Source of the DNA: an uncultured Actinomycetes bacterium
Lineage (GTDB): Bacteria > Actinomycetota > Thermoleophilia > Solirubrobacterales > 70-9
Direction: 5' to 3'
Assembly (NCBI GenBank): GCA_963763265.1
Contig: CAVXNN010000001.1
Span: 184,949 to 248,948, forward strand
DNA length: 64,000 nucleotides
Positions within the stretch are counted from its first letter, which is position 1. Every line of letters begins with the position of its first letter. Of the stretch, positions 28,642 to 41,105 are shown one piece after another. The position numbers and the translations under genes are program-made. The notes beneath the pieces are model-generated. The model saw only the letters and a program-made list of their open reading frames with translations, was not told the DNA's origin and did not search any database.

Positions 28642-28679
28642 AAAGCCCGCCGCCGGGATCGAACCGGCAACCTCCTGAT
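28642..28679. repeat. distal att site: displaced 3' fragment of tRNA-Thr (direct repeat copy 1)
   Basis: The exact 38-nt string AAAGCCCGCCGCCGGGATCGAACCGGCAACCTCCTGAT is also present at 41030-41067. No matching 5' tRNA half follows here. Confidence 0.85.
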
Positions 28680-28919
28680 GAGTCGGAGGCTTGCGGCTGA
28701 TTTCGGTCGTCTGCGTTTTCCCTGCTAATCGGCACTTTCAGTCAGATCCGAAGCCGGTTCATTTGCGGCTTTCGCCGAACCGCCTGTTGCCTTTTTGTTG
28801 CCCCGAAGCCCTCACCGAAGCCTAGGGCGGGGCCTTGCCCTGCGACGAGCGTGCTCACGACGCCCGCACCTACTTTCCGATAGCCGTCGCATGGGGCCCC
28901 AGGTCACGCATTCCGACAG

Positions 28920-29177
28920 GTGGAGCCGACAGCGAGCATCGAGTACTCCAAGCAGCTGGTTTGCGGTCCTGACGATCCGGAGGCTGTCTCCTACCCCGAA
29001 GCCTCCATCAGCCGGTTCTCGAAGGACGCCAGCCTCCGGATGCTGGTGGCCGACGCTGCCGGGTGTCACGACCTGACCGCGGCGCGTCGGAAGCCAAGAG
29101 GGCCGCTGAACTGGGTCCGACGGACCTTGCTCTCCAGGTCTACCCAGGCTGGTGATTGGTCCATCATGGCGAGCTAG
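28920..29177 (+). CDS. hypothetical protein (weak call)
   Basis: 85 aa with a GTG start. By my hand count about 80 percent of codons end in G or C, in a region that is otherwise A/T-richer. There is no clear SD and no motif was recognised. Confidence 0.3.
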   Translation: MEPTASIEYSKQLVCGPDDPEAVSYPEASISRFSKDASLRMLVADAAGCHDLTAARRKPRGPLNWVRRTLLSRSTQAGDWSIMAS

Positions 29178-29417
29178 GACGGATCGGCGAAACTCGCAGG
29201 CTCAATAGCCATGCGGGTTCGCAGGGTCGGTGAGTTCACGGATACCTCGCTTTTCGGGGCTGAGCTACCCCAGCCACATCATCAGCGTCACGATTGTCAA
29301 CGCGTTGAGGAGCCGCAGAGCGCAATCCTGCGCGGCGGCGACGGCAGGATTTGATCTCCGTCCGGGCTTTGTCGGGCCTTTCAACGCCTTTCAGCGCTTT
29401 GTCCCCGTCTGGGTGGA

Positions 29418-29437
29418 CCGGCAGATCTGCCGGTTTT
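29418..29437 (+). terminator. candidate intrinsic terminator
   Basis: Perfect 16-nt palindrome CCGGCAGATCTGCCGG (29418-29433) followed by TTTT. Confidence 0.45.
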
Positions 29438-29718
29438 GCCGGGAGAGGCACTGGTACGGTGGCCTCGTTCGGCGTTCGTCTTCTCTGCGGAACGCTTCGC
29501 CAAGACCTCCGGCGGGACCCGGGGGTCTTGGCATGTCCGTAAACGCGTCCGGCGCCGCTGGTAACTGTTTCTGCGTTACGCAGAGACCACCCGCTGTCCC
29601 GAATCCCGTGCGGGTGAATGAAGATGGAACGAACGCCAGACATCTTGCCCCTTAACGTGCGGCCCGTATTCGGGTTGAAGCCGTGCGGGGGAGTACCGGC
29701 GTAGAAAGGAGGAGGCGT

Positions 29719-29898
29719 ATGGCTAAGACCATCTACCGCCCCGGGCAGCGCGTCCCGATCAGCGGCCAGTATGGCGTGGTCAACCGTCTCGGCACCTACC
29801 TCGGTACCGAACGGACGTGCGTTCGGGGGGAGCCATTCCCCCCGATCAACACGCCCGGCGGGCATGGCTACGTCCTGCGGGACGCAACCAAGCACTGA
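29719..29898 (+). CDS. YjzC-like small protein
   Basis: The ATG at 29719 follows AAAGGAGGAGG. The 59-aa MAKTIYRPGQRVPISGQYGVV...VRGEPFPP...GHGYVL matches the YjzC family pattern (PGQ.aP.sG.Y...G..FP). Confidence 0.6.
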   Translation: MAKTIYRPGQRVPISGQYGVVNRLGTYLGTERTCVRGEPFPPINTPGGHGYVLRDATKH

Positions 29899-29954
29899 TT
29901 CCTGACTAGGGAATTACTTCTGATTGACCGGGTGGTGCGGGACTACCCAGTTGG

Positions 29955-30215
29955 TCAGGACTCTAGACCCCCATCGACTTCGGCGAAGGTCACCTCGACC
30001 CAATTCTCGTCCAGATCTACAGCTCGAACATGCCGATCAGTTGCTTCCCCGAGCCGCAGCATCATCTCCGAGTTGCTCGCATGCACGGTCTCGACTACGA
30101 CGTCCTCGGTCACCCGGAGAAGCGCCCATAGTCGCCCAGCCTCGAAGCCTCGGACGAACTCGGGGTCGTCGGTGTCGAACGGGAGCAGACAGGTATGGCC
30201 GGTCGGGTCGTTCAC
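29955..30215 (-). CDS. hypothetical small protein
   Basis: Track ORF 29955..30371. The favoured start is GTG at 30215, 4 nt after GAAAGGAAC. The 86-aa product is acidic (VNDPTGHTCLLPFDTDDPEFVRGFEAGRLWALL...). Confidence 0.45.
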   Translation of the reverse strand: MNDPTGHTCLLPFDTDDPEFVRGFEAGRLWALLRVTEDVVVETVHASNSEMMLRLGEATDRHVRAVDLDENWVEVTFAEVDGGLES

Positions 30216-30627
30216 GGCGGTTCCTTTCGCATTGACTTCTCGACTCCTTCCCCATCGCTGGGGTTTTTCGGCCAGCGGGACAGTCCCGTAGGCAGTGCTC
30301 AAACCGGGACCACTGCGCCTTTCGGAGCGGATTTTCCGTCCGCTCGACCCGGTGGTTTTTCGCTCTAGCAAGCGACAAACCGACCTCCCCGCGAGGTTGG
30401 CGCTTTCCGGGGGTCAGGCCAGACGAGGTGTAGCTCGCGTGGCAGTTCCCAAGGTAGCGCCTTCCAGGGTGTCTCAGTTGTCGTAGCTGCTCGAATCGCC
30501 GGAGATCCCGCGGTTGAGCGCCGAGCGGCATTCGTCGATGAGCAGGCCGGGTCGATCCTGCCGGCCGAGCGCTGTCAGCCCCACTGCCTCTCCCTGCTCT
30601 TTAACGGCGCCCGCCCAGCTCGGAGGG

Positions 30628-31815
30628 TCACTCAATCGGACCCCCTTGCGGACCTGCCGTTGCCTGCGCGCTGTCGCCAAGCGCATCATCGAAGAACTCG
30701 GCGCCCCCGATCCCCTCGTCGAGCAGGTGGATGTAGGTCGAGAGGGTGAAGGACGGATCGGCGTGGCCCAGCCACTCCGAGACCTGCTTTACGTTGCGGC
30801 CGTTCTCGAAGAGGAGCGATGCGCAGGTGTGCCGGAAGGTATGGAAGCTGACCCAGGGCGTCTCGACGCCATCTCGGTCGACCACCAAGCCTGCCGCCTT
30901 GGCGGCGGGGGCAACCACGCGGTTGGCGACGTTCGAGCGACGCAGTCCCTCGCCGGTCGCCGTGGTGAAAACCGGGCTCTTCTCCTCGGTGAAGTGGTCG
31001 CGCCGATGAACGCGGAGCCGATCGGCGAGGCTCGGCGACAACGGCAGATTGCGGCGGCCGCTCCTGGACTTGAGGCGCTGTCGCTTGCCTTCGTAGACCT
31101 GTTCGCGGACCAGGAGCCGCGGCGTGCGCCCGAGGTCGAGGTGCTCCCAGTTGACGCCGCAAGCCTCGCTGATCCGTAGACCGGTCTGGGTCAGGAATAG
31201 GAAGAAGAGTTCCCAGTCCTCGCCTACAGCCGACAGGAAGAGGCGCAGCTCCTCCTTGGTCAGCGCCTTGGCGGGCTCGTCCGTCTCGTCGGCTCTCGGT
31301 GCCGCCGGGATACGGACACCCGCGATCGGACTCGATCGCAATATGCCGTCCTCGACCGCCGTCGCGAACATCGCCGAGGTCGCCGCGCGTACCAGCCGAA
31401 GGACCGACGTCGAGATTCCGGCCTCGCGCAGCTTGCCGTAGAGGCGGCGGACATCGACGGGTTCGACCTCTCCGAGGCGCCAGGTCCCCCACTCAGGGAT
31501 CACCCGCTCCGAGATCGCCCGGCGGTAGAGACTGCGAGAACGGTCCGATAGCCCCTGCGAGGTCCGGCCCGCGTAGGTCTCGATCCACTCGGAGAAGTAG
31601 GCGTCGACCGTCACCTTCGACGCCGGCGGTCCATCGCCCGCGCGACGCTTGCCCTGCGCCTCTCGCGCCTCGGCGAGCGTCCTGAAGGTTTCCTTGTGCT
31701 GCTTGCCGCGGTGACGCCAGACGACCACGTAGGCGCAATCGCATCTGCCGCCCCCGCACTCCTTCGTGTGACGCCGGAAGATCCCCGGCGTCGAAGTCTT
31801 GGTCAGCTTCGCCAT
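30628..31815 (-). CDS. tyrosine-type site-specific recombinase/integrase
   Basis: Track ORF 30628..31839. The ATG at 31815 follows GAGGAGGG. It has an N-terminal SAM-like arm domain and a C-terminal catalytic region with TGLRISEA, HTFRHTCASLL and WLGHADPSFTLSTYIHLL (R...HxxR...Y). Confidence 0.9.
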   Translation of the reverse strand: MAKLTKTSTPGIFRRHTKECGGGRCDCAYVVVWRHRGKQHKETFRTLAEAREAQGKRRAGDGPPASKVTVDAYFSEWIETYAGRTSQGLSDRSRSLYRRAISERVIPEWGTWRLGEVEPVDVRRLYGKLREAGISTSVLRLVRAATSAMFATAVEDGILRSSPIAGVRIPAAPRADETDEPAKALTKEELRLFLSAVGEDWELFFLFLTQTGLRISEACGVNWEHLDLGRTPRLLVREQVYEGKRQRLKSRSGRRNLPLSPSLADRLRVHRRDHFTEEKSPVFTTATGEGLRRSNVANRVVAPAAKAAGLVVDRDGVETPWVSFHTFRHTCASLLFENGRNVKQVSEWLGHADPSFTLSTYIHLLDEGIGGAEFFDDALGDSAQATAGPQGGPIE

Positions 31816-32064
31816 GTCCTCATCCCTCCTCTTGATCATCGTCTACTTGCTGGCGGTTTCGAACGGAGCCCGATTCCCCACCCGCCCGACCGCGGCTTTG
31901 ACAACCGCAGAACCGCGCCCCCCGCAGCGGCCGGAACCCGAGCCGCAGGCGAGGGCCGTAAGGAGCCCCGGCGCGGCCGGGGCTTGAAGGCCGCGAGGAC
32001 GGCGCCACCATCGCGGGCGCCAAAGCCGCCTGCCACCGGGCTTGCGCAACCCGCGAAGCGCCTG

Positions 32065-32340
32065 TCAGGTCCGGATCCCGCCACCCTGCACCAGCCAACG
32101 GTCAAGCTCCGAGCGCCGGGCGATCAGCGCCGATCCGTCGTGGTGGACCGGGATGCGGCGAGCCGAGACGAGCGCGTAGACCCGCGAGCGCGGCGCGTCG
32201 ATGTAGGCGGCGATCTTGTCGGCGCCCCGCAGCCAGCCATCCGCCTCCTTGCGCTCGGCCCGCTCGCCGATCAGCTCGGCCGCGCGCTCGGCGATCTGCT
32301 CGATCAGCTCCTCGCCGATCTCCACGCGAAGCCCGGCCAT
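32065..32340 (-). CDS. excisionase-type HTH (HTH_17/MerR-like) DNA-binding protein
   Basis: 91 aa. DKIAAYIDAPRSRVYALVSARRIPVHHDGSALIARRSELDRWL fits the excisionase HTH pattern. It lies between the relaxase and the integrase. Confidence 0.7.
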   Translation of the reverse strand: MAGLRVEIGEELIEQIAERAAELIGERAERKEADGWLRGADKIAAYIDAPRSRVYALVSARRIPVHHDGSALIARRSELDRWLVQGGGIRT

Positions 32341-32354
32341 TCAGGGCCACCCCC

Positions 32355-35300
32355 TCACAACTCGATCTCCATCGCCCGCTCCCGCTCGATCCTCTGCACC
32401 CGTTCGATCCCGAGTTCCTGCCGCGCCCGCCTGACCGCCTGCTGCGCCCTCTCGCGCTCCTGCCGCGCCGCATGGTCGGTCGGCTCGGGTCCGAATGCGT
32501 GGCCCCGGTCCCGGATCCCGTGCCGCTGTCGGAAGTTCTCGACGTCGCGCACCGCGCCATCCCAGGCAGCCCGCTTCAGCCCCGCGTCGGGCCTGGGACC
32601 CAGCTCGGCGGCGATGTAGTCGGGCGCCGACACCCGCGCGGCGGCGAGCGCCAGATCACGGCGGCGGTCGAGGACGGTGTCGATCGCCGCAACCTCGGCG
32701 CGCGCGTCGTGGCTCACCGCGGGCAGCTCGGAGCGCTCGACCTCCTGGCGCCCGAGCTCCCGCAGGTTGCTCCGTTCGCGCCTCTCGATCCCGTCGAGGG
32801 CGTCCCGATATTCGCGTCTCGCCCGACCCCAGCGAGGTTCCCTGCCGAGCGCCTGACGCTCGGCCTCGACCTGGTCGAGGGCGAATTCGGCGGCCGCCGT
32901 CCGATGGTCGAGCGACTCGCGCCTACGTTCGGCCGTGCCCTCTGCGTTGGCCTCCGATGCGATCTCGGAGCGCAGCCTCACCAGCTCGGGCGAGGAAAGC
33001 GCGTCCAGGCGCGTGCGGAGCGCCTGGTCGTGGGCTGAGATCTGGGCGCCGTCGCGTTCGGCCGCCGCGGCGATGTGGGAGAGGTCTCCCCGGACGCCGG
33101 GGACCGGCGCGAACTCGGCCCGCTCGAGGTCGATCTCGGGCGTCGCGTAGAACCACGTCTCCCGACGGCTGCGCGAGGCCGCGACGTAGAGCTCCTGGCG
33201 GTCCATCGAGGGGTCGGCCATCACGTAGGCGCGGTCGACGGTGGAACCCTGCGCCTGGTAGGTGGTCGCGGCGTAGGCGTGCTGGAGCGCCGGCGATCCG
33301 TCGTTGGGGTTCTGCCGCGCGAGATAGTCGCCATCGACCACCACCCGCCTTTCTGAGTCGACGCCGACGAGCCCGACGCCGCGGCCCTCGGCGTCGATCG
33401 CCTCGACCCGCCAACGCTCGCGGTTGTGGACCTCCGCCCCGTGGTCGTTGACCCGGGTGATCACCTGATCGCCGACCGCGAAGCGGGCGTCGCCGACCTT
33501 GAACTCGACATCACCGAGCCGGCCTTCGGCCTTCATCACCTCGCGCGCCAGGGCATTCAGCCGCGCGACCTCGGCGTTGCGCTTCGCGATCATCAGCGCG
33601 TCCTCGCCTTCTGAGTAGGAGCGCCACCAGTCGCGCACCATCTCCTCGCGGCGGACCTCGGGATCGGGCGAGACCACCACGCGACCCTGGGAGCGATAGG
33701 CCTCGATCGCCTCGGCGCCCCTGCCCTCGCGGATCCGCCTCGCTCCCTCGCGGTCGAGGTCATGTTCGTGACGGATCACCTCGTCGAGGAAGACCGGATC
33801 GGTGCGGGCGACGAGCGAGCCGAAGAGGCCACCCGCCTCGATCTCGCCGAGCTGGGCCGGGTCGCCGATCAGGACCAGCTTGGCCTCGGCCTCGCGGGCA
33901 TGGTCGATCAGCCGCGCCAGCGTCGCCGAGTCGAGCATCCCGGCCTCGTCGACGATCAGGACCGAGCCATGCCTGAGCGGGCGGCCACGGCCGTCGAGCC
34001 GGGCCAGGAGCCGGGCGACGCTCACCGCGTCGAGGCCCTCCGAGCCTAGGACGTTGGCGGCGCGCCAGGTCGGTGCCGCCACCCGCAGGTCGACCCTGGA
34101 GGCGGCCCATGCCTCGGCTGCCGCGACGGTGGCGAAGGTCTTGCCGGTCCCCGCCTCGCCGACCACGAGGACGAGCTGCTCGCCGCCGCGGGTCAGCCAC
34201 TCGACCATCGCGCGCTGATCTGCCTTGATCGTCGAGCGGCTCGCGAGGACGCGGGAGACGACGATCGGGTCGGCGACCGCGAAGGCGCCGCTCGCGGCCA
34301 TCTCCTCCGCCGCCGCCAGCGCCCGACGCTCCAGCTCCCAGATCCGCTCGGTGGTGAAGCGGGGACCACGTGGAGTCTCGGCGATCCGGATCACCGAGGC
34401 CGAGGCGAGGAACTCGTCGGCGAGCCGCTCGACCTCGGCGGCGGGGGCGCCGTGGGGCAGGTTGTCGGCGACGGCGCGGATCGCGTCGCGACGGTCGAAG
34501 TGGGAGACGTGCTCGGTGACCGAGCGCTCGACCCTCTGCGCGCTGAGGACCGAGCGGCCGGGCCGCTCGTGGCCGAGACGCCGGGTGATCCTCTCGCGGT
34601 CGAGCCCGACTTCCTCGGCTTTTGCCCGCCATCCCTCGCGGAGGCTCTCCTCGGTCAGGTCGCGGTCCTTGGCCCTGCGCGTCTCCAGGGCGGCGACCTG
34701 CATCGCGCGGGCGGAGGCGCCCTCGCCGACCGCGGCGAGGATCTCGGCGCGGCGGGTGGAGAACTTCCGCAGCTCCTCGGAGGAGAAGCCGCGGATGTCG
34801 GCGATGCCCTTGACGACCGGCTCCCACTCGACGCCGAGGCGGATCGTCAGCTCGTGGCGAAGGTGGGCCTCGTAGAGGTAGCTCGCGGTCTTCGCGTGCT
34901 CGTAGATCGCCGGGTGGTAGAGCCGCGACCAACGGCCGTCGGGACCGAGGGTCGCGTTGGCGACGAGGACGTGGGTGTGGAGCTGGGGATCCCCGGTGCG
35001 GGAGGAGCGATGGACATAGGCGGCGGCGAGGAAGCCGTTGCCCGGCACGAAGGTTCTCCCGCCCTTGCCCCGTCGCGCCCAGCAGGCGGAGCGCTCCATG
35101 TAGGAGAGGGCGGCCTCAACGGCGGCGCGGTGGGCCTCCATCACCTGGCCGGAGATCGGGTGGCCGGCGAGCGCCCAAGTCAGCGATACCGACTTGGGCG
35201 CCGAGAAGGTGAGGTCGAAGCCGGGGACCGGCTCGCGCCCCGGTGCCGACCTGAGGCCGAGCGGCTCGCCCGTGGCCGGGTTGCGGCCGGTCAGCATCGC

Positions 35301-35471
35301 GGTCAGCGCGTCGGGCTCGACCTGGCCGGCAAGTCCGAGTTCGGCAGACGCGGAGCCGATCCACCGGCCCTCGGCCTCGCCACGGCCCGAGTAGTAGTCC
35401 TCGGCGCCTTCGGCGACCTTCTCGGTGTAGTAGCGCTCCTGGCCGGCGCCGAGCTTGCCGATCGAGAGCAT
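32355..35471 (-). CDS. MobF/TrwC-type relaxase fused to TraA-like helicase
   Basis: Track ORF 32355..35705. The relaxase fold begins at ATG 35471 (MLSIGKLGAGQERYYTEKVAEGAEDYY). His motif HRSSRTGDPQLHTHVLV and helicase Walker A VVGEAGTGKT are present. The C-terminal ~250 aa are a charged coiled coil. Confidence 0.9.
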   Translation of the reverse strand: MLSIGKLGAGQERYYTEKVAEGAEDYYSGRGEAEGRWIGSASAELGLAGQVEPDALTAMLTGRNPATGEPLGLRSAPGREPVPGFDLTFSAPKSVSLTWALAGHPISGQVMEAHRAAVEAALSYMERSACWARRGKGGRTFVPGNGFLAAAYVHRSSRTGDPQLHTHVLVANATLGPDGRWSRLYHPAIYEHAKTASYLYEAHLRHELTIRLGVEWEPVVKGIADIRGFSSEELRKFSTRRAEILAAVGEGASARAMQVAALETRRAKDRDLTEESLREGWRAKAEEVGLDRERITRRLGHERPGRSVLSAQRVERSVTEHVSHFDRRDAIRAVADNLPHGAPAAEVERLADEFLASASVIRIAETPRGPRFTTERIWELERRALAAAEEMAASGAFAVADPIVVSRVLASRSTIKADQRAMVEWLTRGGEQLVLVVGEAGTGKTFATVAAAEAWAASRVDLRVAAPTWRAANVLGSEGLDAVSVARLLARLDGRGRPLRHGSVLIVDEAGMLDSATLARLIDHAREAEAKLVLIGDPAQLGEIEAGGLFGSLVARTDPVFLDEVIRHEHDLDREGARRIREGRGAEAIEAYRSQGRVVVSPDPEVRREEMVRDWWRSYSEGEDALMIAKRNAEVARLNALAREVMKAEGRLGDVEFKVGDARFAVGDQVITRVNDHGAEVHNRERWRVEAIDAEGRGVGLVGVDSERRVVVDGDYLARQNPNDGSPALQHAYAATTYQAQGSTVDRAYVMADPSMDRQELYVAASRSRRETWFYATPEIDLERAEFAPVPGVRGDLSHIAAAAERDGAQISAHDQALRTRLDALSSPELVRLRSEIASEANAEGTAERRRESLDHRTAAAEFALDQVEAERQALGREPRWGRARREYRDALDGIERRERSNLRELGRQEVERSELPAVSHDARAEVAAIDTVLDRRRDLALAAARVSAPDYIAAELGPRPDAGLKRAAWDGAVRDVENFRQRHGIRDRGHAFGPEPTDHAARQERERAQQAVRRARQELGIERVQRIERERAMEIEL

Positions 35472-35862
35472 CAGCGGGGACGTCCGCCGGGAACGCTTGA
35501 TCCGTCGTGGGTCGGGGTCATGGGTCCACTGGCCTGCGAGCGGGGCTGTTGCACCGGGTGCATGGCGCCATTGGCCCGCGGGCGGGCCGTTTGCACCGGG
35601 TCGGCGGGAATTGCCACGGGCGGCGTGTTCGGCGGGGCCGGCCGGTGCATCCGCGGGCTTTCGTGGATGCGGATCGGCAGCCGGTTCCGTCGAGGGGATC
35701 ACCATCCGGTGATACGGCGTGAGGGGTTCTGCTGTTGTCGTTATGTGGGTGGTGGCTGTTGGCTTGGCTTGGTAGCTGTGGTCTGCTGGCTGGGCTTGCT
35801 GGCTGGCTTCTCGTTGCCTGCGACTTGGCTTGCCTGTTCGGCTCTCGCCTCTGCCTGTCTGG

Positions 35863-36180
35863 CTACTGGCTGCCTGCCTTTCTGAATCGATGTCTGGATG
35901 GCCTTGAGTTGAAGGTGAAGACCCCTTCGGTCTCGGGTGCCGGGACCCAGGCGATCCCGTCGAGCAGCTCTTCCGGCCGGACCGCCATCGCCCCGGACAG
36001 TCGGATCAACGTGTCGATCCGACAGGTCCGGCCGGAGCGCTCAAGGAGGCCGACCTCGGTGCGGTGCAGCCCGGCCCGTCCCGCGAGCTGGTCCTGGGAA
36101 AGCCCTTCCCGGCGGCGCACCCGACGAAGGTTCTCGGCGAATCGATCGGCGACGTCCTCGGAGGGCTGCCCCCTACCCAT
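35863..36180 (-). CDS. XRE-family HTH regulator, paralogue C
   Basis: 105 aa with LRRVRRREGLSQDQLAGRAGLHRTEVGLLERSGR...LLDGIAW. Its start overlaps the stop of paralogue B by 8 nt. Confidence 0.75.
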   Translation of the reverse strand: MGRGQPSEDVADRFAENLRRVRRREGLSQDQLAGRAGLHRTEVGLLERSGRTCRIDTLIRLSGAMAVRPEELLDGIAWVPAPETEGVFTFNSRPSRHRFRKAGSQ

Positions 36181-36460
36181 CGCGTCCGTTCTCCGGGGCG
36201 GTCACGACGAGGCCGCCGCCGAGCCACACGATCGGCTCCCAGACGATCCCGTCGAGGAGGTCGTCGGGGGTGGTGCCGAGGGCTCCCGCCAGACGGACGA
36301 GGGTGAGGACCCGCGGCATCCGCCCGCCGCCCTCCAGCAGGCTCACCTGGGTGCGGTGGATGGCCGCCCGGAAGGCGAGCTCTTCCTGGGTCAGGCCCGC
36401 GTCCGCACGCAGCCGGCGGAGGTTGGCGGCGAAGCGCCGCGACGGCCCGGGGGATCTCAA
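36173..36460 (-). CDS. XRE-family HTH regulator, paralogue B
   Basis: 95 aa with LRRLRADAGLTQEELAFRAAIHRTQVSLLEGGGR...LLDGIVW. There is a 4-nt overlap with paralogue A. Confidence 0.75.
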   Translation of the reverse strand: MRSPGPSRRFAANLRRLRADAGLTQEELAFRAAIHRTQVSLLEGGGRMPRVLTLVRLAGALGTTPDDLLDGIVWEPIVWLGGGLVVTAPENGRDG

Positions 36461-36744
36461 CCATCCGCGTCCCGCCCGGCCTCGACGATCCGGCCCGGCC
36501 TCCTGTCGCCCACCTCCCAGGCGATCCCGTCGAGGAGGACGCAGGGCAAGGCGCCGAGGCCGCCGGCGATCTTGATCACGGTGTCGATCCGCGGCAGCCG
36601 TTCGCCGTGCTCGATCAGGCTGACCTGGGTGCGGTGGATCTCGGCGTTGTGGGCGAGCGCCTCCTGGCTCATGTCGAGGCCGCGACGGATGCGCCTGATC
36701 CGCGGGCCGAGGATGCCGGCGACCTGCCTTGCCGAGGCGTCCAT
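36457..36744 (-). CDS. XRE-family HTH regulator, paralogue A
   Basis: 95 aa with IRRIRRGLDMSQEALAHNAEIHRTQVSLIEHGER...LLDGIAW. Its start overlaps the upstream stop as TGATG. Confidence 0.75.
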   Translation of the reverse strand: MDASARQVAGILGPRIRRIRRGLDMSQEALAHNAEIHRTQVSLIEHGERLPRIDTVIKIAGGLGALPCVLLDGIAWEVGDRRPGRIVEAGRDADG

Positions 36745-37079
36745 CAGCCGAGGATGAAGCCGAGCCCGACCATCTGGCGGGCCGGGCGGCTCGGGATGAG
36801 CAACTCGCCCTGGCGGACCACGAGCCCCGAGGCCATGAGCCCGTGGACGGCGCCGGAGAAGCGGTCGGCCTCGCCGAAGTCCTCGGGGTCCCCGGCCCTC
36901 GCGGTCAGCGCCTCGCGCCAGGTGAGGATGCCGGGGAACTCGGCGAGGAGCAGGTCGAGCAGGCCGCGCTGGTCCGCCTCGTAGACCTCCTGGGGGTCGC
37001 GCTCATGGCGGGAAGGGGGCGCGCCGGCGCCTCCCGAACTACATTGCGGGTGCATGGGAGCGAATACCTCCTGTGCCAT
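36744..37079 (-). CDS. hypothetical protein, first gene of the four-gene regulatory operon
   Basis: 111 aa. An alternative ATG at 37055 follows AGGAGG. The C-terminal AVHGLMASGLVVRQGELLIPSRPA looks like a small winged-helix-type recognition segment, but this is tentative. Confidence 0.5.
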   Translation of the reverse strand: MAQEVFAPMHPQCSSGGAGAPPSRHERDPQEVYEADQRGLLDLLLAEFPGILTWREALTARAGDPEDFGEADRFSGAVHGLMASGLVVRQGELLIPSRPARQMVGLGFILG

Positions 37080-37144
37080 GCCCCCGGCTGTTTGCGCAGC
37101 GCGGGGGCGCTTTTTGTCTGTAGATGGAAGGTAGCAGAGCTACA

Positions 37145-37166
37145 AGCCGACTTTTAGAAGTCGGCT
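37145..37166. promoter_or_regulatory. candidate operator palindrome in the divergent intergenic region
   Basis: AGCCGACTT-ttag-AAGTCGGCT has perfect 9-bp arms and is flanked by GCTACA at 37139-37144 and 37164-37169. It lies about 40 nt upstream of the plus-strand XRE gene. Confidence 0.35.
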
Positions 37167-37206
37167 ACATGGACGATCCACCAACAAGTTGAGAACTTAA
37201 AGTCTG

Positions 37207-37434
37207 ATGCCACCCTCGAATACCACTCCGCCGAGCCTCGGCAAGGCGATTCGGCAGCTTCGCGAGCGGGGCGGCATGACCCAAGAAGGACTTGCGCATG
37301 CTGCCGGGTCGACCGCCGCCACGATCAGCGCCATCGAGCGGGGAGTCTCGAATCCAAGTTGGGGAACGGTCGAAGCGATCGCCGGAGCGCTCGGAGTGAC
37401 GATGGTCGAGGTTGCTCGACTTGCCTCGCGTTGA
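37207..37434 (+). CDS. XRE-family HTH regulator (divergent from the four-gene operon)
   Basis: 75 aa with LGKAIRQLRERGGMTQEGLAHAAGSTAATISAIERGVSNPSWGTVEAIAGALG. Confidence 0.75.
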   Translation: MPPSNTTPPSLGKAIRQLRERGGMTQEGLAHAAGSTAATISAIERGVSNPSWGTVEAIAGALGVTMVEVARLASR

Positions 37435-37734
37435 CAAAACCACCCAGCTCCTCGCTGAGGGCAGGACGGTCGCCGGAGATTCTCGACGTCCCATGGCGGT
37501 GTAGGCGCCGCCTGAAAACTGACCCCCCCTCGCCGGTCGAAAACTGGGGTCTTGCTGAAAGAACGGGGATGAGGCCCGGATAGAGACATCCGCCGCCCCC
37601 CGAGGCTCTGCGTAGTTCGAAGAACGCGGAGCAAGGAGAACAGCGGATGCACGATCAAGTTAGCCGCGGGCGGCGGCGAGGAGCCACTCCTCGCCGGGAA
37701 CCCGCAGCGCTTGTTGTAGCGAGCCACGGGATGA

Positions 37735-39024
37735 TCAGGTCCCTCGGCCGGCAAGGTCATGGGGCCAGTGCCAAGGCTCCGGCTCCTCCCTGATTTGCTC
37801 GAGAAAACGTCGCGACCTCCGCGGCACGACGCCACACTTCTTTAACCCGGCTTCGCCCAATCGAGCGAATACGGTTCGCGGGTAGTCCGTTCTCTTGCGT
37901 CGCAGACACTTCTCAAGGTGGTCCCGAAGGGCCCAATACCCCTCCTGGGCCCCTTCGGCCTCGACCGTATGTGGTTCGTAGCCAGCATGCACGACCAAGT
38001 TCCGGACCCGGTAGAGGCTCTCCCAGTACTTGTTGACCGGGGTGCCCTTCGCCTTCACATCCCAGCGTCCACCGAGCTTCTGCGGCATGGTGGTGATCAA
38101 CAGCGACTTGAACGACCGCTCTCGCCCGAGCTCAACCGAGATATCGGAAGAGCAGCGCCCCTCATCGACCAAGATCATGCGGTAGGTGTCGAAGAGCAGG
38201 CTCTCCGCCGCAATCTGGAAGCTGATGATTGCGTCGGAGGCATCCCCTTCTTGGCGGAGCGCACGTTGCGCCCTTAACCTCCAGAGTTTGGACCCCAGAT
38301 AGGGCTGGTTGGTCTCGACCGCATAGATCCCGTCCTGCAACTGCTTCTCGGTGATCGGACCATGTGAGGAGGGCAACTCATCCGGTTCGGCCTCGGGATG
38401 CATGAGCATCGTGTTCAGAAAGTCCCAGGACCCATCACGCCTGCGAACCCCTAGCACCACGACCGGCCGCAGATCGTGCGAGCTGACGGGCCGGATGCGG
38501 ACGTCTTGAGTTGCCGCTTGTACGGCCCGGAGAAAGATGTTGAAGGCCATGAGACAACGGTGGAACGCGAACGCCGGATCGTCCCACTGAAGCTCTCCCT
38601 TGGTGGGAGCGGATGGAGTCTCCAAGGTCACCCACTGGTGATGGGTAGCAAGCTCCCCCTCGCCATATCGATCCTCAGGGTTACCGATGAAGTCGTGACC
38701 ATAGAAGTGAGCAAGTGCAGCGTGGGTGCCCGGCGGCCACATCGGCAGTCCGTCTTCCTCGAACGTGAAGACCCTGATGTCGATGGTCGGGAGCGGCCCA
38801 AACAGATCTTCATCCGCCGGATCGGCGAACGAGTCGTGGATGGCGATGGTATGGCCGAGCTTGTCCGGGATGCCAAGAGGGAACGACAATGCGGCAGTAA
38901 AAGTGTAGATACCGGGCTCCCCCAACTCGTCGGCGAACTGATCGCTCGGATGCCACATAGCGGGAAGGATAGGCAGGGGACCGGGCAAGATCAGCATCCT
39001 TCTGGTCGGATCGCCAAACCGCAT
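37735..39024 (-). CDS. hypothetical protein with C-terminal HEPN-like domain (Rx4H)
   Basis: 429 aa. The C-terminal helical region is DASDAIISFQIAAESLLFDTY ... YWESLYRVRNLVVHAGYEP, with R341-x4-H346 encoded at 38004-37987. No motif was recognised in the N-terminal ~250 aa. Codon usage is A/T-richer than in the core genes. Confidence 0.6.
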   Translation of the reverse strand: MRFGDPTRRMLILPGPLPILPAMWHPSDQFADELGEPGIYTFTAALSFPLGIPDKLGHTIAIHDSFADPADEDLFGPLPTIDIRVFTFEEDGLPMWPPGTHAALAHFYGHDFIGNPEDRYGEGELATHHQWVTLETPSAPTKGELQWDDPAFAFHRCLMAFNIFLRAVQAATQDVRIRPVSSHDLRPVVVLGVRRRDGSWDFLNTMLMHPEAEPDELPSSHGPITEKQLQDGIYAVETNQPYLGSKLWRLRAQRALRQEGDASDAIISFQIAAESLLFDTYRMILVDEGRCSSDISVELGRERSFKSLLITTMPQKLGGRWDVKAKGTPVNKYWESLYRVRNLVVHAGYEPHTVEAEGAQEGYWALRDHLEKCLRRKRTDYPRTVFARLGEAGLKKCGVVPRRSRRFLEQIREEPEPWHWPHDLAGRGT

Positions 39025-39086
39025 AGGTTTTTGCCGGTCAAGTTCAATGTCTCGGGTTCGATGACGCCCGTAGGCGGGAGGAACGC

Positions 39087-39845
39087 GTGAACTGCATGAA
39101 CGTTCTGCTGGCCGGAGCCCGCGTGGGCGATGCGGGCATCTCAGTGACCGAAGTCGTGACGCTTTTGGTGGCCTTGGCGGCGCTCGTTGTCGCCTTGACC
39201 TCGCTTTGGATCACCGCCCTCCGCCCCGCTCGGTTCAACCTGACCTTCATGCGCGAGCACACGAAGATAGGCACCAGCGGCAAGAACGAAGTGCCCAATA
39301 TCTGCTCCATCCGGGCGTTCATGGCCCTGACGAATTCGGGTGCAAGGGCGGGACTCCTGGAGCGAGTGGGCTGGGGTAGCCACTTCAAGGTGGAGGCCGA
39401 GGCAGCACTGATGTTCGCGGTCGGTCCCGTGCCCCCGGAGAATGGGACCCATGAGGAGATGGTACGGCTCGACGGCAAGGTGCTGAACTGGCCGATCACG
39501 ATCCAGGCGGGAGACGTGCGGGCGCTGGAACTCGACTTCGAGATGGGCGGCGAGCTCCGGCGAGCCAGAGACGGGGCGCGGAAGGACTTGAAGCCGATCG
39601 CTGAGCTGGTGGCGAAGCTTGAGCGCGTCTCGATCGATGTCCACCTGATCTACCGATCGGGCAGTGCATCGCCTCGTTGGCTCGGCTACTTCTTCCGTCA
39701 GCGGACGGAGATCGGCAACTTCTATATCTACGGCGCAGAACTTAGGCGGACGGCGTCGGGGTATTGGTCGAGCATCGGTCGTGAGGACCTAGCCAAGATC
39801 GTCGACGATAGTTTCACCGGTCGTGACATCGACAAGATGTTTTAG
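39087..39845 (+). CDS. hypothetical single-pass membrane protein
   Basis: 252 aa. The GTG at 39087 lies 5 nt after GGGAGGAA; an alternative ATG is at 39096. One TM helix (VVTLLVALAALVVALTSLWITAL) and no recognised domain. It is divergent from the HEPN-like gene across 62 bp. Confidence 0.55.
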   Translation: MNCMNVLLAGARVGDAGISVTEVVTLLVALAALVVALTSLWITALRPARFNLTFMREHTKIGTSGKNEVPNICSIRAFMALTNSGARAGLLERVGWGSHFKVEAEAALMFAVGPVPPENGTHEEMVRLDGKVLNWPITIQAGDVRALELDFEMGGELRRARDGARKDLKPIAELVAKLERVSIDVHLIYRSGSASPRWLGYFFRQRTEIGNFYIYGAELRRTASGYWSSIGREDLAKIVDDSFTGRDIDKMF

Positions 39846-40014
39846 GCGAGGGACCACGAGACAGCGACGAAATGGGAGACCGACGGTCGATGGATGTCCT
39901 CACGCGCGTCTCTCGATCGGCCGGGTCTGAAGAATCCCACTGATCTGAGTCGTCCGTCTCGTCGCGAATGACTGCCATCGGCGGCTCAAATTACGCCTCA
40001 CAACGGTCGGCTCC

Positions 40015-40047
40015 GGGCCTCTCGACGTAGGCAACGTCGAGAGGCCC
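40015..40047. terminator. strong hairpin (possible terminator) in a noncoding gap
   Basis: GGGCCTCTCGACGT-aggca-ACGTCGAGAGGCCC has a perfect 14-bp stem. There is no U-tract on either strand. Confidence 0.35.
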
Positions 40048-40338
40048 TGGAGTCGGCAGTACGATCGCCACATGGTCCGCGCTAACAGATCCGCCCAGTC
40101 CGAGGTAGAGCGACGGCGAAAATCTGCCGAACGGACTTGAGGAATGTTCGCCCACCTGCACCGGGCAGAAATCTCTCCGATGAGTTGGTCGCTGACCGAC
40201 GCGACCGAAGCAGAGGCCGAGGCGCAGGAGGCGGCTGAGGAAGCCCAGCGCTTGCATGACAGGCGCTGAATCGCGTCATCCGATCCTCGATGTCTCCGCC
40301 CTGCACAGGTAGGACTGGACTAGAAATCGAGCCACGCA

Positions 40339-40626
40339 ATGCCTAACGCGCGACTCATCCGCGATCCACAGGGAAGGGACGTCTTGCTGGACGTCGAGCG
40401 CTGGGGGCACATCGTCGACGGGCATCCGGAGTTGGGCCACATGCAGGAGGAGGTCCTGCGCGCCGTGGAATCGCCGACCGAGGTCATGGCGGGGCGAATG
40501 TCCGATGAAGAGTGGTTCTACCTGGAGGGAGCCGGTCCGAGTCGCTGGCTCAAGGTCGTCGTGGTCTTCGACCGGAAAGGCAGCGGGCGTATCATCACTG
40601 CATTCGGACGACGAAGGAAGCCATGA
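40339..40626 (+). CDS. small toxin-like protein, partner of the DUF2283 gene
   Basis: 95 aa with ERWGHIVDGHPELGHMQEEVL...WLKVVVVFDRKGSGRIITAFGRRRKP. The stop overlaps the next start as ATGA. The family assignment (DUF4258-like) is not certain. Confidence 0.55.
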   Translation: MPNARLIRDPQGRDVLLDVERWGHIVDGHPELGHMQEEVLRAVESPTEVMAGRMSDEEWFYLEGAGPSRWLKVVVVFDRKGSGRIITAFGRRRKP

Positions 40627-40898
40627 GCGTGACGATCGCCGACATCACCTTTGATCGCGTCGAGTACGACTCCGATGCGGACGTCCTCTACCTCCACGTC
40701 GGCGATCCCTCGACCGCGGTCGAATTCGACGAGACGCCCGAGGGTCATGCACTCCGCTTCGACGCCACGGGCAATCTCGTCGGCATCACGCTGGTCCGCC
40801 CCAAGCATCTCCTCGATGAGAGCGGCGGACTGCGCATCACCTTGCCGGTTCCGAGCGACGTTTCCGCTCGCGAGTTGACCCCGGCTCTGAGCGCATAG
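40623..40898 (+). CDS. DUF2283 domain protein (putative antitoxin)
   Basis: The ATG at 40623 lies within track ORF 40512..40898. The 91-aa YDSDADVLYLHVGDP...FDATGNLVGITL fits the DUF2283 pattern. Confidence 0.65.
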   Translation: MSVTIADITFDRVEYDSDADVLYLHVGDPSTAVEFDETPEGHALRFDATGNLVGITLVRPKHLLDESGGLRITLPVPSDVSARELTPALSA

Positions 40899-41029
40899 CG
40901 CGTATTTGCGGCCGTCGACTCGGCGGCGCGCTTCCCCGTATCTCTGCGCCCTGTTGCCCTGGGCGTTGCCCCAGCAGATGAGAGCCCGCCACCTTTGCAG
41001 ATGATTTGGCTCTGTGACGCCACTTCGCA

Positions 41030-41067
41030 AAGCCCGCCGCCGGGATCGAACCGGCAACCTCCTGATT
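41030..41067. repeat. proximal att site within tRNA-Thr (direct repeat copy 2)
   Basis: Identical 38 nt to 28642-28679. It covers the tRNA from anticodon-loop position 38 to the 3' end, plus 2 nt. Confidence 0.85.
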
Positions 41068-41105
41068 ACAAGTCAGGTGCTCTCCCAGGTTGAGCTAGGC
41101 GGGCG
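41032..41105 (-). tRNA. tRNA-Thr (anticodon UGU)
   Basis: Hand-folded cloverleaf: GCCCGCC TA GCTC AACCTGGGA GAGC A CCTGA CTTGTAA TCAGG AGGTT GCCGG TTCGATC CCGGC GGCGGGC T. It is 74 nt long and no CCA is encoded. Confidence 0.9.

Follow-up and report, generated by a model that had tools for sequence, protein, structure and literature searches.

A putative HEPN-type ribonuclease with an orphan N-terminal domain as cargo of a mobile element in an uncultured actinobacterium

The 64,000-nucleotide stretch of DNA analysed here (the window, part of contig CAVXNN010000001.1 from an uncultured actinobacterium of the Solirubrobacterales) contains, within an island at a tRNA-Thr gene, two divergent genes encoding a 429-residue protein, called here the HEPN-like protein, and a 252-residue membrane protein. 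In the reading that we favour, and hold to be rather probable, the HEPN-like protein is a self-contained, single-polypeptide HEPN-type ribonuclease (RNase) of an undescribed family, carried as accessory cargo of an integrative mobilizable element. Its assignment to the HEPN type as such is considered highly probable, and is supported by the invariance of R341 and H346, by a confidently predicted all-helical domain and by weak profile and fold matches that converge on HEPN proteins; RNase activity, dimerisation, ligand activation and an antiviral role we only infer. A first-pass annotation of this DNA had seen in the two genes a HEPN-like effector, for which the same evidence speaks, acting together with a membrane partner. 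The unit of interest is, instead, the single HEPN-like gene and not the gene pair, which corrects the earlier pairing idea. The features on which the argument turns are:

37735..39024, minus strand: HEPN-like protein gene, 429-aa longest open reading frame (ORF), without a conserved partner gene
37987..38004, minus strand: predicted catalytic Rx4H codons (R341-N-L-V-V-H346), inside the LYRVRNLVVHAG signature, with R and H invariant in alignments A1 and A3
37897..38298, minus strand: HEPN-like helical core, aa 243-376, from the AlphaFold (AF2) model together with fold and profile matches
38350..38937, minus strand: N-terminal mixed alpha/beta domain, aa 30-225, from the AF2 model; proposed sensor/regulatory domain
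39087..39845, plus strand: membrane protein gene, 252 aa, single-pass, divergent from the HEPN-like gene; adjacent cargo, functional link not shown

The HEPN-like family and its predicted catalytic domain

A profile search over 1.84 billion representatives recovered 1,490 clusters (at 50% identity) with an E-value (E) of 1e-3 or better, and the HEPN-like family occurs in Solirubrobacterales, Acidimicrobiia and Pseudonocardiales. The first-pass annotation had correctly read both R341-N-L-V-V-H346, at nucleotides 38004-37987, and the peptides that it quoted from the 429-aa protein. However, 77% of shuffled versions of this protein contain an Rx4H string by chance, and a second copy is present at residue 178, so that the motif becomes meaningful only through its conservation. 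Indeed, 37 full-length homologues, down to 33% identity, all have R341, N342 and H346 (alignment A1), and W321, R341 and H346 are the sole invariant columns among 72 relatives sharing 17-39% identity (alignment A3); the conservation of R341 and H346 among homologues, which had been left as a check, is thereby found at both levels. In HEPN proteins the Rx4-6H motif often reads R-N/H/Q-xxx-H. Because these two are the only invariant catalytic-type residues, the R341A/H346A controls proposed in the first-pass annotation are well justified. Further conserved residues (G318, G319, W321, Y333, W334 and Y338) are found upstream of the catalytic arginine.

The N-terminal domain carries two motifs that are invariant in the close family, QWVTLETP and FAFHRCL, and varies more than any other part of the protein, with a column entropy of 2.95 bits versus approximately 2.3 in the HEPN core. 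Some members carry TPR arrays at either the N- or the C-terminus (P0158; P0083, P0089 and P0122 are listed among the variant members), and some share a conserved N-terminal extension of approximately 350 aa without a Pfam match (P0124, P0131, P0132 and P0133 are listed). The arrays and extensions are possibly alternative sensor modules, and the combination of a variable N-terminal domain with such additions would be typical of proteins built around sensor modules.

The HEPN nature of the family is already recognised in public annotation, by annotation alone: WP_236791860.1 of Amycolatopsis sp. GM8, which is 50% identical over its full length, is named 'HEPN domain-containing protein' in RefSeq, and five homologues bear the JGI label 'Apea-like HEPN'. 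Neither Pfam nor NCBIfam has a model of the family, and PADLOC does not define a system for it.

The AF2 model of the full-length protein has a pLDDT of 84.7 and a pTM of 0.73, and that of aa 226-429 a pLDDT of 94.1 and a pTM of 0.89. The helical C-terminal region described in the first-pass annotation is recovered in the model, in which aa 226-425 are all-helical, the HEPN-like core being formed by helices 243-259, 262-287 (with the motif FQxAAESLL), 329-347 (with the catalytic motif) and 353-376, and interrupted by an insert, 288-328, that contains GGxW321. The N-terminal domain has no fold match in PDB or BFVD when the whole model is searched with Foldseek, and no detectable relative. When the isolated C-terminal domain was compared with PDB, HEPN proteins made up nine of the 40 best-ranked matches (ranks 4-40), with a TM-score (TMt) of approximately 0.5 and E of at least 1. 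The matches of best probability are the HEPN domain of sacsin (3o10, TMt 0.53-0.54), HepT (6m6w, 6m6u, 7bxo and 5yep, TMt approximately 0.5) and Csm6 (6tug and 5yjc), and four HepT chains and three Csm6 chains are comprised in all. HEPN proteins have a four-helix up-and-down core with the motif on a core helix; here, the fold check gave a divided answer, HEPN proteins being among the best-ranked matches and none of these being statistically significant, and fold statistics alone are not conclusive for the HEPN call.

Profile matches point in the same direction. Distant members of the family show sporadic sub-threshold matches, and these are to HEPN-type models only: PF05168 (1.2e-3), HEPN_Swt1 and RiboL-PSP in Pfam, and RTasHEPN and Csx1/Csm6 (4e-4) in PADLOC. 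The match of the Pfam HEPN model PF05168 to P0208 falls on the region equivalent to helices 1-2. In a profile search of PDB the two top matches were Ec2ApeA and Ec4ApeA, aligned on YW..LYxxRNxxxH, although not significantly.

Both ORFs are regarded as real genes because verbatim copies exist in public protein collections (P0001, of 420 aa and starting from M10, for the HEPN-like protein, and P0094 for the membrane protein) and because 93 close homologous clusters are found for the former and 26 for the latter. Divergent ORFs of 429 and 252 aa separated by 62 bp, as first annotated, are borne out when the longest ORFs are considered. The true start of the HEPN-like gene is, however, likely to be M10 at 38997, as in the database copy, or M23 at 38958, where homologues start, and the spacer, which is 89-128 bp when taken from M10 or M23, is probably of that length in reality, since the starts of homologues correspond to M23 and the AF2 model shows disorder over residues 1-20. 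The membrane protein gene has a GTG start preceded by a Shine-Dalgarno sequence, GGGAGG. A sigma-70 promoter scan of the intergenic region returned nothing, and is uninformative for a high-GC actinobacterium.

Gene neighbourhoods and relation to ApeA

The HEPN-like gene is solitary. When the ORFs on either side were clustered across 38 non-redundant loci of the family, with a minimum length of 80 aa for a distance of up to 6 kb and of 45 aa for one of up to 2.5 kb, no conserved neighbour emerged, and the largest cluster, that of integrases, comprised three loci of the 38. Markers of mobile elements, defence or toxin-antitoxin systems, taken within approximately 8 kb, are present in all seven annotated neighbourhoods, in agreement with the defence or mobile setting that had been envisaged for homologues:

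Window: integrase and TrwC relaxase
L001: integrative and conjugative element with a methyltransferase, Replic_Relax and TraG
L003: two integrases
L054: integrase with HTH_17
L052: type I restriction-modification system and PIN toxins
L056: CAP12/PCTIR TIR protein
L058: Fic, KAP NTPase and DUF4145

In catalytic motif and in logic, ApeA is the closest relative among characterised proteins. ApeA is one protein that has its HEPN domain at the C-terminus together with an orphan N-terminal region, and its activation proceeds through a pocket made up of the N-domain and of that HEPN helix which lies upstream of the catalytic arginine (bioRxiv 10.64898/2026.01.26.701840; 10.64898/2026.03.20.713152). 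Its fold is mainly helical and comprises N and Mid domains (bioRxiv 10.64898/2026.01.26.701840). Other properties of ApeA are a doughnut-shaped oligomer, the cleavage of tRNA or phage RNA and resistance to phages. Ec2ApeA is PDB entry 9HXB and Thr1ApeA 9HXL, and for comparison a profile (A4) was built from genuine homologues recovered on Streptomyces and Bacillus plasmids. Thr1ApeA matches the Streptomyces plasmid protein in L045 (1645-3267) with E 1.5e-89, and Ec3ApeA and Ec2ApeA match the Bacillus thuringiensis plasmid protein in L046 (1540-3318) with E of approximately 1e-27 to 1e-24; L047:1145-2767 and L049:1148-2767 (Streptomyces) and L050:1040-2818 (Bacillus thuringiensis) are close ApeA relatives by alignment and motif only. 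These plasmid homologues are annotated as 'hypothetical protein', save that in L047, which is named 'class I SAM-dependent methyltransferase'.

The HEPN-like family and ApeA have in common the (R)LYRxRNxxxHxG signature of the catalytic helix, including the tyrosine at -3, and the 'ESLL' motif of helix 1, LYRVRNLVVH being in register with the catalytic R502-H507 of Ec2ApeA and with the actinobacterial and Bacillus ApeA homologues. A hidden Markov model (HMM) of ApeA matches 159 of 240 family members, versus 8 of 240 shuffled controls, nearly always at the catalytic helix; for P0140 the alignment extends over 140 columns (E 1.5e-4). Both are encoded by one gene without a conserved partner, both join a C-terminal HEPN-type domain with insertions to an N-terminal region without known homologues, both are located in mobile or defence loci, and both have conserved residues on the catalytic helix upstream of the arginine, where ApeA builds its ligand pocket. 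In contrast, ApeA proteins are 540-620 aa long and the members of the HEPN-like family approximately 410-430 aa, i.e. about 150 aa shorter, and the helical N and Mid domains are replaced here by an unrelated, mixed alpha/beta N-domain of approximately 200 aa. Pairwise similarity is likewise slight, with phmmer returning E 0.5 against ApeA and BLASTP aligning the 12-aa motif alone, and no ApeA chain is among the listed Foldseek matches. Full ApeA membership is, therefore, not claimed, in view of the unrelated N-domains, the difference in length and an hhalign probability against the ApeA profile of 21-24%. Our verdict is that the family represents a variant of the ApeA-type single-protein design with an orphan N-domain, and not a new kind of system. 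The earlier statement that the architecture cannot be mapped to any named system is correct as regards Pfam, NCBIfam, PADLOC and PHROGs, ApeA being the nearest named system.

Other RNase systems are more remote. HepT, the toxin of HepT-MntA (PDB 5YEP, 6M6W and 7BXO), gives the best superposition of the core helices (TMt approximately 0.5, root-mean-square deviation 5.4-6.2 over approximately 145 columns) and also has an Rx4H motif on a core helix. It differs in that no MNT antitoxin is adjacent here, the neighbours in the window being the membrane protein and an Xre helix-turn-helix (HTH) gene, and in that the HEPN-like protein is three times larger, adding the N-domain, an insert of approximately 40 aa and a C-terminal tail; the Foldseek E is not significant. 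Csm6 and Csx1, the CARF-HEPN ancillary RNases of CRISPR systems, have a HEPN of the RNxxxH type, and Csm6 chains recur among the fold matches; CARF_HEPN models, like those of Csx1/Csm6, give weak PADLOC matches in distant family members, of which the best (4e-4) is below the curated thresholds. They are alike in concept, combining a ligand-activated sensor with a HEPN, but the HEPN-like protein has neither a CARF domain nor a CRISPR context. Dazbog (DzbA and DzbB) was considered and set aside: the match to DzbB (E 0.049) covers 21 residues at the Rx4H only, and no DzbA or DUF262 protein is found among the ORFs of the island.

If the family does consist of true antiviral or anti-plasmid nucleases, it would be an additional defence family for soil Actinomycetota, a group of which catalogues of defence systems centred on E. 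coli, such as PADLOC-DB v2, give poor coverage, and the orphan N-domain could reveal a new trigger of HEPN enzymes, beside the sensing of deoxydinucleotides or of phage RNA structure recently described for ApeA. Tentatively, and with some doubt, the family may be seen as a widespread and unrecognised actinobacterial single-protein immune sensor-RNase, in which the novel alpha/beta N-domain senses a new infection cue and switches on an ApeA-like HEPN nuclease.

Proposed mechanism and alternative explanations

In the mechanism that we propose, the C-terminal helical domain would dimerise in the manner of HEPN RNases, which are metal-independent, with R341, N342 and H346 contributing to a composite Rx4H active site, and the fast-evolving N-terminal alpha/beta domain would keep the enzyme inactive. 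A cue derived from infection or stress, perhaps bound between the N-domain and the G318-G319-x-W321...Y333-W334...Y338 segment upstream of the catalytic residues of helix 3, would activate the enzyme, which would then cleave RNA (tRNA, mRNA or invader RNA) and in this way block the propagation of a phage or of a rival element, as shown for ApeA. The adjacent membrane protein would take no part, being independent cargo.

Several observations weigh against this picture. Foldseek gave no significant match (E of at least 0.17 for the full model and of at least 1 for the isolated domain), and comparable scores are reached by generic helical bundles, for example a designed minibinder and a subunit of cytochrome oxidase. 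Neither Pfam, NCBIfam, PADLOC nor PHROGs yields a significant match to the 429-aa protein, and the hhalign probability against the ApeA profile quoted above refers, at most, to the HEPN region. The silence of Pfam weighs little, since the copy searched also misses two genuine ApeAs, the L045 and L046 proteins. Furthermore, a lone toxic RNase needs autoinhibition, which for the 429-aa protein is assumed, and the family has no relatives in the phage, plasmid and IMG/VR collections, a phage or plasmid origin having been dismissed in view of the lack of relatives in INPHARED, PLSDB, IMG/VR and PHROGs.

That Foldseek, hhalign and the curated HMM libraries return no HEPN match of significance, that Rx4H arises easily in shuffled sequences, and that non-catalytic HEPN domains such as that of sacsin exist would all be compatible with a C-terminal domain that is a generic, non-catalytic helical bundle, in which the arginine and the histidine serve a structural or ligand-binding purpose and the protein functions, for example, in regulation or in transfer of the element. 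This is considered unlikely: R341 and H346 stay invariant in relatives of 17-39% identity, in which nearly all other positions vary, the extended LYRxRNxxxHxG signature also occurs in the catalytically proven ApeA, and the weak matches converge on HEPN RNases instead of being scattered over fold types. A similarly low probability is assigned to the protein acting as toxin in a toxin-antitoxin or addiction module by which the element is stabilised, of the HepT-MNT kind and with the Xre gene at 37207-37434 as the possible antitoxin. Ranked by TM-score, the best fold matches are indeed toxins of the HepT type, mobile elements carry the gene, and the element in the window holds several Xre HTH genes and another small pair resembling a toxin-antitoxin system. 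However, neither an MNT gene nor any other neighbour of at least 45 aa is kept within 2.5 kb in the 38 non-redundant loci, the Xre neighbour itself not being conserved, and a protein of approximately 410 aa with an extra domain of 200 aa is far from the minimal HepT of approximately 130 aa. The explanation given the least credence is that of the first-pass annotation, in which the two genes together constitute a module of defence or abortive infection, the membrane protein acting as sensor, regulator or co-effector, as the adjacent and divergent arrangement in the window might suggest. Searches by tblastn with the membrane protein and its 26 homologues (27 queries) found nothing in 40 HEPN-family loci; the HMM of the partner family is absent from approximately 45 of 47 HEPN-family loci, and is confined to its own loci, and the HEPN-family HMM is absent from four of the six partner loci (L005, L006, L043 and L059). 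The partner family is also tiny, with 26 clusters versus 1,490 for the HEPN family.

Homologues of the two genes thus come close to never being adjacent, the sole other adjacency being that in L044 (6001-7964), where an 83%-identical partner homologue is followed after 39 bp, tail-to-tail, by a 396-aa gene for a highly divergent HEPN-family protein (A3 HMM, E 3e-30; RKRAVH at 341-346). The partner, therefore, adjoins a HEPN-family gene in two of six independent contexts, which is above expectation for so rare a family, and a loose functional affinity of the membrane-protein family for HEPN-family genes is a possibility because this adjacency recurs despite the distance between the HEPN proteins and the opposite orientation of the genes. 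Against a module, however, the two genes diverge in the window but converge in L044, the HEPN proteins of the two pairs are approximately 24-34% identical versus 83% for the partners, and the partner in L044 belongs to another co-directional string, of which it is the third gene (176 aa, 600 aa, partner). The two-gene module is, on this evidence, very unlikely; the membrane protein is read as independent cargo, and L044 as the meeting of two kinds of island cargo in the same niches.

The partner homologues have surroundings of their own. Those in L005 (1-12819) and L006 (69-6690) adjoin giant, polymorphic-toxin-like proteins of 1,557-2,142 aa with NHL/RHS/YD repeats, that in L043 lies in a region with a resolvase, Replic_Relax and PIN, and that in L059 is near PIN and DUF2630 genes. 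The DUF2630 neighbour is common to L006 and L059, which suggests a chromosomal variable spot as their setting. The neighbours of the partner in L005, L006 and L043 were also considered as cryptic HEPN effectors, a notion that was abandoned because they show no similarity to each other or to the family, and only one of them has an Rx4-6H motif. The similar sizes of flanking genes in L001 and L044 had hinted at the 'same cargo slot', but the flanks are not homologous by tblastx.

The tRNA-Thr element and its other genes

The island that carries both genes spans approximately 12.4 kb (28642-41066), is GC-poor, is bounded by a 38-bp direct repeat and has no mating-pair genes. Since a TrwC/MOBF relaxase lies beside an integrase, the island is, as judged from its gene content, an integrative mobilizable element, and the first-pass view of both genes as cargo of an integrative element near an attachment (att) site agrees with the repeat, the tRNA-Thr gene, the integrase and TrwC found here:

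28642..28679, no strand: distal att direct repeat, 38-bp copy of the 3' half of tRNA-Thr; far end of the island
30628..31839, minus strand: tyrosine integrase (Phage_integrase 4e-21)
32355..35705, minus strand: TrwC (MOBF) relaxase-helicase (TrwC 1.3e-84; AAA_30 1.6e-47)
37207..37434, plus strand: Xre/C-protein-like or CapH-like HTH gene, 75 aa (HTH_31 2e-15; PADLOC Control_protein 3e-11, capH 2.6e-10)
40339..40898, plus strand: overlapping small gene pair beside the tRNA-proximal att site, PBECR2/RelE-like then DUF2283
41029..41104, minus strand: tRNA-Thr(TGT) gene (41031-41104) and proximal 38-bp att repeat (41029-41066)

A separately assembled 11.3-kb contig, L051 (ERZ25039483), corresponds to positions 28795-40136 of the window at 99.92% identity.

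The two cargo genes are, as had been noted, A/T-richer than the host, with GC contents of 0.61 and 0.62 versus 0.71-0.73 in the flanks. The GC content at third codon positions (GC3) is mostly lower too, being 0.74 and 0.80 in the two genes versus 0.89-0.92 in TrwC and one of the two backbone ORFs measured; the second backbone ORF has a GC3 of 0.66, below both cargo genes. The single N-terminal transmembrane helix ascribed to the membrane protein is matched by exactly one hydrophobic segment, at approximately aa 20-48, and the HEPN-like protein has none.

The 75-aa HTH gene (37207-37434) is convergent with the HEPN-like gene and is not kept beside its homologues; it may be a local regulator of the cargo region, and is missing from the public gene calls of the matching contig L051. 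Between the relaxase and the HEPN-like gene, at 36006-37079 on the minus strand, a run of small co-directional genes includes at least three Xre-type HTH proteins (95, 95 and 105 aa, by the L051 gene calls), so that regulators are unusually dense for an element of 12 kb. At the other end of the cargo, the pair at 40339-40898 consists of a 95-aa candidate PBECR2/RelE-like nuclease (a weak match, E 0.0019) and then a DUF2283 protein (2.6e-8), and looks like a toxin-antitoxin pair.

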